The notes under the pieces were generated by a model. It did no database searches, was not told the DNA's origin, and worked only from the letters and a program-made list of their open reading frames with translations. The translations under genes and the position numbers were made by a program. From positions 1 through 49,995 of IMG/VR virus record IMGVR_UViG_2721755643_000006: a stretch of 49,995 nucleotides of DNA. One strand, given 5' to 3'. This document shows positions 46,136 through 48,577 of this stretch, piece by piece (position 1 is the stretch's first letter; the number at the start of each line of letters is the position of its first letter). The stretch is from a virus (Duplodnaviria > Heunggongvirae > Uroviricota > Caudoviricetes).

Positions 46136-48577
46136 ATGAGCACTGATAAAGAAGAATTTGCACTATATTGCGAAGCAAAAAATGACAAAGTAAGAAAACG
46201 CCTGGGAATTAAAGGTGGTTTTTACTGGACTACAGCAAAAAAATTATCTGTTGCAATCTCCCGCTGCATTACCGCAATGGATGACAACGATTATGATGAA
46301 GACGACTTTAAAAAACCCGTCCGCGTCAATTTGCCCGTTGTTGACGACCTTCCGCCAGAAGGCGTGTTTGATACTGAATTCTGCAACCGCTATGAAAAAG
46401 GCGGGAAAGATGGCATCACAATGACATTTATCGGCCCTTCCCCCTCTGTTCAGGACAAACCAGCCAGCACTGACAATACCAACATCAACGGCGAAGACAT
46501 GACTGAGATTGAGGAGAGCATGCTTCTGCCTGTCTCCGGTCAGGAACTGCCCATTCGTTGGCTTGCTCAACACGGCAGCGAAAAACCAGTAACGCACGTT
46601 TCACGCGACGAACTCCAGGCATTACACATTGCATGGGCTGAAGAACTACCGGCTGTTACTGCCCTGGCTATTTCGCATAAAACCAGTCTGCTCGACTCGC
46701 TGGAGATTCGCGACCTCCACAAACTGGTTCGTGACACTGACAAAGTTTTCCCTAATCCTGGTAATTCAGACCTGGGACTAATAACTGCTTTTTTCGAAGC
46801 ATACCTGGACGCTGACTACACTGATCGGGGTCTGCTGACAAAAGAGTGGATGAAAGGAAATCGTGTTTCACGCATCACCCGCACGGCTTCCGGTGCTAAT
46901 GCTGGCGGTGGGAACAAAACCGATCGCAATCCGAATTTAGTACACACCCTCGACACACTGGATGTGGAGATTGCAGCAGCCACACTTCCGATGGATTTTA
47001 ATATTTATGAAATTCCGGGCAGCGTTTATCGTCGCGCAAAAGAAGTAGTCCTGAAAAAAGAAAGTCCGTTCAAAGAATGGTCCGCAGCACTTCGTGCAAC
47101 CCCGGGTATTCTGGACTATTCCCGCGCCGCTATTTTTGCACTTATCCGAAGCGCACACCCTGAATTTTATCACTACCCGGGACGCCTTCAGGGGTATATC
47201 AACGCCTATTTGACGGAAACTGATCACGAGAACCCCAGCAAGGAAACTCTCACAGCTGCCCGGCATACGCCGGAAAAAGATATCCTGGAAGAAATTAACC
47301 GCGAGGTGGTTACTGAGCGTGAAACAGAAGAAGAAAAACCACAACCATCTGACGCAATGGCAGGTGAACAGGCAACAACTGAAACAATGGAACCGGATAC
47401 AACTGAACATTGCCAGAACGCGCAGTCGCTGGATGCTCAGTCGCAGGTGAGTTCCGCTAACCAAGTAAAAGTCACCGCTGACGAAGTAAACAAAATTATG
47501 CAGGCAGCCAATATCAGCCAGCCTGACGCCGATAAGTTACTTGCTGTATCGCGTGGTGAATTTGTTGAGGGGATTAGCGCCCCTAATGATCCGAAATGGG
47601 TCAAGGGGAGCCAGACTCGCGATTCTGTGAACCAGAACCAGCATGAATCGGAACAGAATGACCAAAAAGCGGAACAAAACAACCCAAATGCGCGACAAAA
47701 CGAGCCAGAAACGATACAGCCTGAGCCAGTAGTGCAACAGGAACCGGAAAAAGTTTGTACCGCCTGCGGTCAGACCGGCGGCGGCAACTGCCCTGATTGT
47801 GGCGCGGTGATGGGCGACGCAACATACCATGAAACATTCGATGACAAGAACCAAGTTGAAGCTCAGGAAAATGATCCGGAGAAAATGGAAAGCACTGAAC
47901 ATCCGCACAAGGAGAACACTTGCGGCGATCAGGATCACGCCAGCGATAATGAAACTGGCGAGACGGCAAATACCTTAATTAATATGAACGGTCATCATAA
48001 AAGCACATCCACCAGCAGAATGTGGCACCACCTGATGATCGACCTTGAAACAATGGGCACAAATCCCGATGCCCCGATTATCTCAATAGGTGCAATATTT
48101 TTCGATCCGCAAACCGGAGAGATGGGGCCGGAGTTCAGCAAAGCTATCGATCTGGAAACATCTGGCGGAACCATCGACCGGAAAGCAATAAAGTGGTGGG
48201 CGAAGCGATCACGCGAAGCGCAATCTGCCATTTTTACCGATGAAATCCCGTTAGATGACGCTCTACTGCAATTACGGGAATTTATCAACGAAAACTCCGG
48301 CGAAAGCTTTGTCCAGATCTGGGGAAATGGAGCCAACTTCGACAACACGATTTTGCGCCGTTCATATGAACGGCAGGGGATCCCCTGCCCGTGGCGTTAC
48401 CACAACAATCGCGACGTGCGCACTATCGTTGAACTGGGAAAAACCATCGGTTTTGATGCCAGAACAGCTATCCCGTTCGAAGGAGTACCCCACAATGCAC
48501 TGGATGATGCCCGTCACCAGGCGAAATACGTTTCAGCTATCTGGCAAAAACTGATCCCGAGTCAGGCTGATTTTTAA
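46136..48577 (+). CDS. Large prophage exonuclease: C-terminal DnaQ-like DEDDh 3'-5' exonuclease domain, internal zinc ribbon and acidic linker
   Basis: C-terminal motifs [33 protein letters not shown]; [16 protein letters not shown] ribbon; E/Q/N-rich low-complexity linker. Confidence 0.75.

Follow-up and report, generated by a model that had tools for sequence, protein, structure and literature searches.

What kind of nuclease is made from the gene that precedes xis and int in a lambdoid prophage, when that gene stands in the position of recE and no recT follows it? The question is raised by a Caudoviricetes record in IMG/VR (IMGVR_UViG_2721755643_000006), of which positions 1-49,995 were analyzed; this whole stretch of 49,995 nucleotides is here called the window. 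A preliminary description, made from the letters of the DNA, had placed an 813-aa exonuclease near its right end, and an open reading frame of that length with an ATG start is indeed present there (Table 1). Its product is identical to RefSeq WP_046881150.1, which is named "3′-5′ exonuclease", and the DNA of the gene is 100% identical in E. coli RMDEC364 and VL46, where the annotation is the same. The PGAP name for the protein is already "3′-5′ exonuclease", while some alleles are called "3′-5′ exoribonuclease domain-containing protein".

Domain architecture of the 813-aa protein

The C-terminal part of the protein carries the catalytic domain. In Pfam, it matches PF16473 with a score of 224.7 bits, the cut-off being 27 (E 8.8e-67, far beyond chance), and the full profile (1-177) is covered. 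The three exonuclease motifs of a DnaQ-like DEDDh domain are placed as had been claimed from the sequence, and the H-x4-D arrangement of Exo III (H786 and D791) assigns the domain to the "h" subtype. A phmmer search matches PDB entries 8KEL and 8KEN, which are structures of T4 DexA, at an E value of 6e-6. The same protein leads the Foldseek matches of the C-terminal structure model (pLDDT 86.8, pTM 0.84), with an E value of ~1e-11 and a TM score of ~0.73; RNase T comes next, along with a DnaQ domain, Orn, and REXO2, and each of these top matches has a probability of 1.00. The modeled domain adopts the alpha/beta fold, similar to RNase H, that is known from exonucleases of the DnaQ type.

In agreement with the view that this C-terminus is not of the lambda-Exo or RecE type, no match to PF12684, YqaJ, lambda Exo, or any other PD-(D/E)XK family was found in the 813-aa protein with Pfam, NCBIfam, or PHROG profiles; a PD-(D/E)XK assignment of the C-terminus would have spoken against that view, and the assignment made by Pfam was PF16473. 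K-12 RecE itself, by contrast, gives a PDDEXK match to PF12684 at residues 615-850. The domain would be a metal-dependent exonuclease that trims free 3′ ends, with DNA as its most probable substrate.

The preliminary description had set the protein apart from RecE. This holds for the catalytic domain, but it overlooked the homology to RecE of residues 58-615, where the identity is 58%. Within this scaffold, PF06630 (Exonuc_VIII) scores 119 bits at residues 57-189, its cut-off being 25. The NCBIfam equivalog model of RecE, NF007259, reaches 921.6 bits, which is below its cut-off of 1269, and is matched only at positions 1-602 of 877. At the level of DNA, identity to the recE of Rac is 92% over 46474-46927 (454 bp) and 74% over 47327-47979 in blastn. 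The end-points of the blastn and BLASTP alignments place a mosaic junction at about nucleotides 47979/47980, where recE homology stops, and BLASTP finds no similarity to K-12 RecE past RecE residue 591. The homology thus ends where the nuclease domain of RecE begins, and what is seen is therefore a swap of the catalytic domain on a RecE scaffold. In effect, the 813-aa protein is a domain-swapped sibling of RecE. Many copies of the protein in draft assemblies break at residues ~617-665.

The first 57 residues have no BLASTP alignment to K-12 RecE and yet are common to other members of the RecE family, in whose alignment alternative N-terminal types are present. The helical core that follows is modeled by AlphaFold with a pLDDT of ~83-95, and the first acidic linker aligns with the equivalent linker of RecE in BLASTP. 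The zinc ribbon and the acidic, low-complexity linker that had been described before the catalytic domain were both located as claimed. A search for structural relatives of the N-terminal scaffold of RecE found no informative one. This scaffold has no known function, and the N-terminal region of RecE is dispensable in RecET recombination (PMC11611040).

Table 1. Features of the exonuclease gene and its neighbors, in window coordinates
Feature	Coordinates	Strand	Evidence
dicB	45666..45854	+	PGAP table
ydfD-like DUF1482 gene	45851..46042	+	PGAP table, Pfam DUF1482
Whole gene, chimeric exonuclease (RecE-type scaffold and DEDDh domain)	46136..48577	+	ORF list, ATG start, 813 aa
Variable extreme N-terminus, aa 1-57	46136..46306	+	BLASTP alignment to K-12 RecE begins only at aa 58
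RecE-homologous non-catalytic scaffold, aa 58-615	46307..47980	+	58% identity to K-12 RecE 50-591 (BLASTP)
Helical core domain, aa ~270-375	46943..47260	+	Found in long exonucleases of both the RecE and the YdfE type
First acidic low-complexity linker, aa 371-530	47246..47725	+	D+E 20%, Q/N/S/T 34%
Zinc ribbon CTAC-x7-CPDC, aa 541-555 (cysteines 541-544, 552-555)	47756..47800	+	Motif positions; conserved in K-12 RecE
Second acidic linker, aa 561-630	47816..48025	+	D+E 23%, Q/N/S/T 34%; contains mosaic junction
DEDDh 3′-5′ exonuclease domain, aa 631-803 (PF16473, Rv2179c-like, DexA-like)	48026..48544	+	Pfam, phmmer, fold match
Exo I MIDLETMG, aa 634-641, predicted catalytic D636 and E638	48035..48058	+	Aligns to T4 DexA D7, E9
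Exo II FDNTIL, aa 735-740, predicted catalytic D736	48338..48355	+	Aligns to DexA D119
Exo III HNALDDARH, aa 786-794, predicted catalytic H786 and D791	48491..48517	+	Aligns to DexA H186, D191
Excisionase (xis)	48639..48908	+	PGAP table, ORF list
Integrase (int)	48877..49995	+	PGAP table, ORF list

Relatives of the protein and their distribution

RecE (exodeoxyribonuclease VIII of the Rac prophage, K-12 b1350) shares with the 813-aa protein the Exonuc_VIII region, the helical core, both acidic linkers, and a CxxC-x7-CxxC zinc ribbon. The two differ in their first 57 residues and, above all, at the C-terminus, where RecE has a PD-(D/E)XK domain of 5′-3′ polarity (PF12684; RecE 606-866; PDB 3H4R), and the protein studied here has a 3′-5′ DEDDh domain. 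They also differ in their company, as recT stands beside recE and is missing after the 813-aa gene. Lambda Exo, which is of the YqaJ type, differs too, since the 813-aa protein has no YqaJ or PD-(D/E)XK match and the prophage has no bet.

The swap is found again in other members of the family. Among 84 long representatives of the RecE-N family, about 14-16 carry a DEDDh domain and about 25 a PDDEXK domain; the phmmer classing of their C-termini missed some DEDDh domains, and a Pfam scan of the group with neither added two. Two representatives of the family carry a RecT domain. The diversity of the family was taken from an exhaustive search of representatives, as a word-indexed search for homologues of the first 380 aa gave near-identical fragments at contig ends only.

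In complete E. coli genomes, the DEDDh segment is present in 4,045 of 5,426 (75%), with up to 7 copies per genome, and the nuclease segment of true RecE in 1,730 (32%). In this set, the DEDDh segment outnumbers true RecE by more than two to one. The module had been called atypical in the preliminary description; this is an overstatement, as the arrangement is, by these figures, the commonest among E. coli lambdoid prophages. For the RecE nuclease segment, every match that was sampled overlaps recT.

With regard to the catalytic domain, the best match of known structure, by both sequence and fold, is T4 DexA (exonuclease A). All five DEDDh catalytic residues are shared, and both proteins are phage-encoded early nucleases. 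Nevertheless, DexA is a stand-alone protein of 227 aa with extra loops and ~22% identity, whereas the 813-aa protein adds an N-terminal scaffold of 630 aa. In an alignment that is uncertain at 22% identity, W152 of DexA, which takes part in the recognition of 5hmC, corresponds to H756, with W753 three residues upstream, and D169 corresponds to F773, with D774 adjoining. The tetramer residue D90 of DexA is kept as D708, and the position of S87 is occupied by P705.

Both DexA and its E. coli homologue EcD have been reported as 3′-5′ DNases (PMC12153337). EcD, or "HREX" (GenBank HAK9828821.1), reportedly degrades T4 DNA, is specific for 5hmC, and protects against T4; it has an alanine (A78) at the position of DexA D90 and keeps W152 (PMC12153337). 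Compared at the level of the family, the 813-aa protein shares with EcD the Pfam family and the conserved DEDDh residues. It differs in having D708 where EcD has alanine and, in the uncertain alignment to DexA, H756 where EcD has tryptophan. A homologue beginning with MIDTET, as EcD does, was sought among the retrieved relatives, and none was found. When the 20 nt of the EcD reverse primer that are specific to the gene were used in exact scans, viral and genome contigs yielded one chance match each; both contigs were unrelated, and the viral one had no site for the forward primer.

There are also enterobacterial stand-alone forms of ~188 aa (such as P0073 and P0086) that are 56-60% identical to residues 631-813 and begin at the Exo I motif. 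P0073 has an alanine at the DexA D90 position. In Citrobacter, the gene of a genuinely stand-alone form likewise closes an early-left operon of lambdoid type.

A further long relative is the 823-aa exonuclease of O157:H7-type and Qin-type prophages (TRITO_27 in phage Tritos). It occupies the same position, in the order dicB-ydfD-exonuclease-xis-int, and is 63% identical from residue 270 to the C-terminus, a stretch that includes the core, the linkers, the zinc ribbon, and the DEDDh domain. By contrast, it begins with ~250 aa of the YdfE type, which bear no relation to the Exonuc_VIII N-terminus of the RecE type. K-12 ydfE matches residues 1-256 of this Tritos-type exonuclease at 99% identity and is a remnant of it, truncated by IS2. 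The idea that ydfE is a truncated copy of the 813-aa gene was rejected for the N-terminus, where BLASTP finds no similarity.

The operon, the missing partners and Chi

Directly after the exonuclease gene come xis and int, with no recT between. The order repressor-ydfABC-dicB-ydfD-exonuclease-xis-int is kept in all seven contexts that were sampled, including the deposited phages Tritos and vB_EcoS-640R1, inducible relatives of which the latter is 93% identical, and in none of the seven does an annealase gene adjoin the exonuclease. The gene probably belongs to the early-left operon of a lambdoid prophage. In a crude consensus scan, the nearest promoter-like site on the + strand precedes isrK (44823-44851), and between the exonuclease gene and xis no convincing terminator was found. 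An autonomous cassette expressed in the lysogen was rejected, as there is no promoter-like site directly upstream and no convincing terminator downstream. The operon is rich in RNA regulators, with isrK and C4 here and dicF in relatives.

No recT, bet, erf, or sak is annotated in the PGAP table, either between dicB and the exonuclease gene, as had been noted before, or elsewhere in the prophage. An annealase hidden among the hypothetical genes was considered and rejected, since Pfam and PHROG scans of 15 unassigned or doubtful ORFs of the prophage found none. Similarly, the PGAP table, Pfam, and PHROG reveal no Gam or other anti-RecBCD gene, no Rec-module nuclease, and no SSB in the prophage. 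The central reading of the preliminary description, that of a 3′-5′ DEDDh domain in place of PD-(D/E)XK with neither Bet nor RecT, is therefore supported.

The prophage contains 10 Chi sites, whereas 1.9 are expected from shuffled sequences, and its Chi density is similar to that of the host chromosome. Seven of the 10 are on the strand of the head genes, and four of these seven lie at 27.5-31.7 kb, close to the phage's right end. According to the main text of Zheng et al. 2025 (PMC12315714), lambdoid phages of a "no Rec module, high Chi" class, the LLS functional type, have at least eight Chi in active orientation in 62 of 68 cases. The seven sites in putatively active orientation found here are one below what that text gives as typical of the class. 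The likeness to these phages lies in the lack of annealase and Gam, the number of Chi well above the shuffle expectation, their bias to the head strand and clustering to the right, and the DnaQ-type nuclease adjoining xis-int; a difference is that a fusion of a RecE scaffold with a DEDDh domain is not mentioned in the main text of PMC12315714. The best reading of the early-left end of the prophage is that it lacks a Rec module altogether, and phages of this class have been described before in that paper.

Possible roles of the protein

With moderate confidence, we favor a modular nuclease of the early-left operon, in which a RecE scaffold is joined to a DexA-like DEDDh domain that would act on the 3′ ends of DNA. 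Once the early-left operon is switched on, the nuclease would be made together with the products of dicB, ydfD, xis, and int, and it would remove nucleotides at free 3′ ends, DNA being the likeliest substrate. It would not be half of a recombinase composed of an exonuclease and an annealase; for recombination, the prophage would rely on the RecBCD, Chi, and RecA of its host. During lytic growth, the nuclease might degrade the DNA of the host or of a competitor, in the manner of DexA, or it might trim 3′ tails so that the ends become substrates for RecBCD. The RecE-type scaffold may be a targeting or assembly module that is compatible with a nuclease of either polarity. Such a targeting role is a guess, because no function is known for the scaffold (PMC11611040) and the search for structural relatives brought up nothing informative. 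Counted against this explanation are the name of the Pfam family, which comes from the exoribonuclease Rv2179c; the number of Chi sites on the active strand, seven, just under the eight of the described class; and the observation, in the main text of PMC12315714, that 3′-5′ exonucleases of the DnaQ type usually inhibit, rather than promote, homologous recombination.

A bolder version of the favored reading, which we regard as rather improbable, would have the RecE scaffold bring its nuclease, whatever the polarity, to a host factor or to the ends of DNA. In prophages that lack a Rec module, the DEDDh form would then trim 3′ tails to allow the ends of phage DNA into the RecBCD-Chi pathway of the host, and would substitute functionally for Exo, Bet, and Gam instead of being a relic. 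If this were true, domain swaps could test the function of the scaffold, given that one scaffold is found on nucleases of opposite polarity.

The main alternative, with a small but appreciable chance of being right, is that the protein is an anti-phage nuclease by which the prophage excludes superinfecting phages, destroying incoming nucleic acid, either 5hmC DNA or the genomes of RNA phages, from the 3′ end. The Pfam family is shared with EcD-type stand-alone proteins, of which EcD reportedly degrades the DNA of T4 and gives protection from this phage (PMC12153337), DexA has the closest fold, and the identity to P0073-like forms is 56-60%. In addition, prophage-borne DEDDh exonucleases with auxiliary domains, called TONDO, protect against MS2 and Qbeta (PMC13344964). 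The gene is also extremely widespread, with up to 7 copies per genome, as is typical of accessory warfare genes. However, the protein departs from the features that define EcD-like enzymes in that paper (D90 is kept, as D708, and W152 probably corresponds to H756), and it is a long fusion and not a stand-alone domain. Moreover, no promoter or terminator of its own was found for the gene, which has ydfD before it and xis after it in the early-left operon and should therefore be silent in the lysogen. PADLOC gave only a weak and generic match, to a CRISPR-associated DEDDh model, and a known defense system was rejected on this basis.

It is quite improbable that the protein is instead an exoribonuclease that acts at prophage induction on the 3′ ends of RNA, for example to trim or degrade sRNAs, tRNAs, or mRNAs of host or phage, or to clear short oligoribonucleotides. 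This would suit the best Pfam match, "3′-5′ exoribonuclease Rv2179c-like", the PGAP name of some alleles (see above), the RNA regulators of the operon, and the nearest folds after DexA, which are RNase T, oligoribonuclease, and REXO2. Nevertheless, RNase T and Orn cut DNA too, and because of this the fold neighbors cannot discriminate between substrates. The closest relatives with a structure or an experiment are DNases, namely T4 DexA, which ranks first by both sequence and fold, and EcD, and the fused scaffold derives from an exonuclease of double-stranded DNA.

Highly improbable, finally, is a recombination exonuclease in a non-canonical Rec module, working with RecA or with a host or unrecognized annealase while the scaffold supplies the function: it would fit the recE position next to xis-int, the presence of the first ~600 residues of RecE, and the RecT domain of two RecE-N representatives, but the 5′ tails left by a 3′-5′ exonuclease are the wrong substrate, being unsuited to an annealase or to strand invasion by RecA, and no annealase stands beside the gene in any of the seven contexts, whereas the sampled RecE nuclease matches all overlap recT. 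The N-terminal region of RecE is, besides, dispensable for RecET (PMC11611040). As for DnaQ-type nucleases in general, the main text of PMC12315714 accepts as true Rec members those genes that are packed tightly among Rec genes, for instance in phage epsilon34, which favors such a role, but it places those adjoining int outside the Rec module.

Among E. coli prophage genes, this one is very common and has been annotated before, and nothing in it is new in kind, as descriptions exist of the domain family, of the position adjoining int, and of the absence of a Rec module. Its interest is that it ranks among the most widespread prophage genes of E. coli, that it may bear on how DNA ends are handled in lambdoid phages without a Rec module, and that one scaffold joined to nucleases of opposite polarity offers a handle on the role of RecE's first 600 residues. 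There is also a practical side. The label "RecE" implies a 5′-3′ recombination nuclease and a RecET-like system that is absent from these prophages, and it would mislead those who mine prophages for recombineering pairs; many phage records label genes of the 813-aa type "exodeoxyribonuclease VIII" or "RecE family".

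Domain make-up of the 813-aa exonuclease

The ORF list, motif positions and composition agree with the preliminary description of an 813-aa ORF with exonuclease motifs, a zinc ribbon and acidic segments (see table); aa 371–530 and 561–630 contain 20–23% Asp+Glu and 34% Gln/Asn/Ser/Thr. The C-terminal domain (aa 631–803) matches the Pfam family PF16473, '3′-5′ exoribonuclease Rv2179c-like', with an E-value of 8.8e-67 and a score of 224.7 bits (cut-off 27), and all 177 profile positions are covered; the general RNase_T/DnaQ family matches the same stretch weakly. The sole sequence-related solved structures are 8KEL and 8KEN, of a 227-aa 'exodeoxyribonuclease' that corresponds to bacteriophage T4 DexA (PMC12153337). 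Pairwise alignment with this enzyme shows that five of five catalytic residues are kept (D636, E638, D736, H786 and D791, equivalent to D7, E9, D119, H186 and D191). In addition, an AlphaFold model of the domain, built with 30 homologues as input (pLDDT 86.8, pTM 0.84), is nearest to DexA in Foldseek (E about 1e-11, TM 0.72–0.75), followed by RNase T, a DnaQ domain, oligoribonuclease and REXO2. Thus, the profile match, the intact DEDDh residues and the fold bear out the DnaQ-like 3′-5′ catalytic domain first read from the sequence, and no search placed this domain in the PD-(D/E)XK family.

The further claim that the protein is not of the RecE type stands for the catalytic domain and fails for the N-terminal 615 aa, which are homologous to RecE. 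Residues 1–615 match positions 1–602 of the 877 in NF007259, the NCBIfam RecE equivalog, at 921.6 bits; the cut-off is 1269, and the shortfall comes from the final third of the model, which has no counterpart here. In BLASTP, aa 58–615, including both acidic linkers and the zinc ribbon, are 58% identical to residues 50–591 of K-12 RecE, and no similarity to that protein is found beyond aa 615. The C-terminus of K-12 RecE is PF12684, a PD-(D/E)XK domain (residues 615–850). DNA identity to Rac recE is 92% over 46474–46927 and 74% over 47327–47979, and this homology ends at about codon 614. The protein is thus a RecE whose catalytic domain has been exchanged, with the junction within the second acidic linker. 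Many copies in draft assemblies break off at aa ~617–665, as would be expected from assembly paths branching at a mosaic junction. According to a review (PMC11611040), the RecE N-terminal region has an unknown function and is dispensable for RecET recombination, and it enhances linear-linear recombination.

Features of the exonuclease gene, the prophage and its border
Feature	Position	Strand	Remarks
Exonuclease ORF	46136–48577	+	ATG start, 813 aa
CTAC, zinc ribbon	aa 541–544		first CxxC pair
CPDC, zinc ribbon	aa 552–555		second CxxC pair
MIDLETMG motif	aa 634–641		
FDNTIL motif	aa 735–740		
HNALDDARH motif	aa 786–794		
Promoter-like site	44823–44851	+	just before isrK
isrK Hfq-binding sRNA	44858–44937	+	Rfam, 63.7 bits
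Terminator-like hairpin	44912–44934		
C4 antisense RNA	44956–45043	+	Rfam, 71.3 bits
'Rha family' ORF with Ash domain	44807–45655		282 aa
ipaH-type gene (IpaHe)	1–1093	+	
ISSfl7 (IS5-like)	24070–24914	+	
tRNA genes (Gly, Thr, Arg, Ile)	29735–30044	−	
DNA methyltransferase gene	30085–31143		
RusA gene	32921–33299	−	frameshifted
hokD	34806–34961	−	
HTH + ImmA/IrrE pair	35377–36305	+	
RelB/RelE pair	42353–42832	+	

Family, architectures and prevalence

The RecE-N family is small and accounts for 215 of the 50%-identity clusters in a set of 1.84 billion representatives. Of its 84 long members, about 25 carry a PD-(D/E)XK domain and 14–16 a DEDDh domain, so the swap is recurrent rather than a one-off; the remainder mostly have the N-terminal domain only and are truncated or nuclease-free. 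What is worth keeping is that the same scaffold has been joined repeatedly to nucleases of opposite polarity. Two of the 84 have a RecT domain (Pfam) within one polypeptide, being either fusions of RecT to the RecE scaffold or merged gene calls.

In E. coli, there are two long DEDDh architectures. The 813-aa form has a RecE-type N-terminus, and phage vB_EcoS-640R1 carries a copy 93% identical to it. In contrast, the first ~250 aa of an 823-aa form, present in phage Tritos, O157:H7 86-24 and other strains, are YdfE-type, and its alignment with the 813-aa form runs from aa 270 to the C-terminus at 63% identity. Within the Qin prophage, K-12 ydfE is 99% identical to the Tritos protein over 256 aa, shows no similarity to the N-terminus of the 813-aa exonuclease, and is the IS2-truncated start of the 823-aa form. 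Genuine stand-alone versions of ~188 aa (56–60% identity) occur in Citrobacter, Klebsiella and related genera, one of them also as the last gene in a lambdoid early-left operon. A 180-aa E. coli homologue (P0041), checked as a stand-alone candidate, proved instead to be a remnant in the same slot, with 2 kb upstream lacking called genes.

Among 5,426 complete E. coli genomes, 4,045 contain the DEDDh segment (47980–48577) at a coverage of at least 80%, with as many as seven locations in a single genome, and 1,222 contain the full-length gene at that coverage. The true RecE nuclease segment occurs in 1,730 genomes of this set and overlaps recT in every case among the matches listed. The gene is thus very common in prophages; it is already correctly annotated, with PGAP labels such as '3′-5′ exonuclease', 'exonuclease' or '3′-5′ exoribonuclease domain-containing protein', and earlier work has covered both its class and its place in the genome. 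Nevertheless, 'exodeoxyribonuclease VIII' or 'RecE family' persists in several phage records and fragmentary entries, and such RecE / exonuclease VIII labels hide the exchange of catalytic domains on a RecE scaffold.

Absence of an annealase and possible roles

As first described, no bet or recT is annotated between the exonuclease gene and dicB. RecT, Bet, Erf, Sak and Gam are likewise annotated nowhere in the prophage, and Pfam and PHROG scans of its unassigned ORFs turned up none of these either. To call the recombination module atypical goes too far, as the same annealase-free order, repressor-ydfA/B/C-dicB-ydfD-exonuclease-xis-int, is seen in seven of seven contexts: that of the window, those of phages Tritos and 640R1, and those of four other E. 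coli chromosomes in which the prophage occupies potC or ompW. Zheng et al. 2025 (PMC12315714) report that 22% of their lambdoid panel are without a Rec module, Chi-rich and apparently reliant on host RecBCD, that an annealase was missing from 134 of 275 lambdoid (pro)phages in an earlier survey, and that 'sporadic' DnaQ-type nuclease genes adjoin int, outside the Rec module. The window carries 10 Chi sites, about five times the 1.9 that shuffles predict (none of 100 reached 10), and seven lie on the head-gene strand, four of those at 27.5–31.7 kb, near the phage right end. This pattern fits the class without a Rec module, though seven is one below the at least eight given for most members in that study (PMC12315714). 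Seven of the 10 sites also fall within 27557–33727, the part with the lysis, Q and nin genes, and four of these are on the head-gene strand.

The enzyme would be a metal-dependent exonuclease digesting from free 3′ ends. Such 3′-5′ polarity leaves 5′ tails, the wrong kind of end for annealase or RecA action; this, combined with recT being missing throughout, argues against the protein being half of a two-component recombinase. Its substrate is most probably DNA, since its closest characterised relatives, DexA and its stand-alone E. coli homologue EcD (HREX), are reported as DNases (PMC12153337) and its scaffold derives from an exonuclease acting on dsDNA. With modest confidence, the preferred role is 3′-end processing during lytic growth, which could consist of degrading host or competitor DNA, by analogy with DexA, or of trimming 3′ tails so that the ends become RecBCD substrates.

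Alternatively, the protein might be an anti-phage nuclease resembling EcD/HREX or the prophage-borne DEDDh 'TONDO' enzymes with auxiliary domains (PMC13344964), a reading favoured by the shared family and the wide distribution of the gene. However, the published HREX criteria set it apart, D708 being kept at the D90 position and, less certainly given about 22% identity, H756 standing in place of W152 in the alignment to T4 DexA; moreover, the gene is apparently tied to the early operon and its PADLOC match is to generic DEDDh only. An exoribonuclease is suggested by the Pfam family name; nearness in fold to enzymes such as RNase T and Orn is no guide to the substrate. A non-canonical recombination nuclease is disfavoured by the polarity, the missing partner and published work that locates such genes outside the Rec module. 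The initial finding was accurate, and its reading was essentially right.

Expression and prophage surroundings

The gene is preceded by dicB and a DUF1482 (ydfD-like) gene and followed by the excisionase and integrase genes, which abut potC. In a crude scan, no sigma-70-like site was found directly upstream on the + strand and no convincing terminator before xis, and the nearest promoter-like site on that strand is the one before isrK. This suggests an ordinary early-left operon member, produced upon induction or infection, rather than an autonomous gene active in the lysogen. Both isrK, bracketed by this site and a terminator-like hairpin, and C4 lie within the 5′ part of the Rha ORF. The region looks like an antirepressor control cassette of the P1 immI / Gifsy isrK type, so the annotated Rha start is probably too far upstream. 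Tritos and K-12 Qin have dicF at this position.

E. coli strains RMDEC364 and VL46 both have this prophage inserted at potC, with an exonuclease gene of identical sequence (100%), and the VL46 layout is that of the window. In RMDEC364 (L001 8275–10890, equivalent to about 42900–43000 in the window), an IS66-family ISCro1, absent from the window, lies between relE and ydfA in an otherwise identical prophage. In the window itself, ISSfl7 separates the terminase small-subunit gene from the lysis region, and the RusA Holliday-junction resolvase gene is frameshifted; therefore, the prophage may be partly defective. It contains three addiction or regulatory cassettes, namely the RelB/RelE toxin-antitoxin pair in the early-left region, hokD, and an HTH protein with an ImmA/IrrE metallopeptidase. 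Upstream of the late region, four tRNA genes are clustered next to a DNA methyltransferase gene. Finally, a gene for an ipaH-type T3SS effector E3 ubiquitin ligase adjoins the tail-fibre end, a position that suggests phage-associated virulence cargo of an EIEC or Shigella-like strain.
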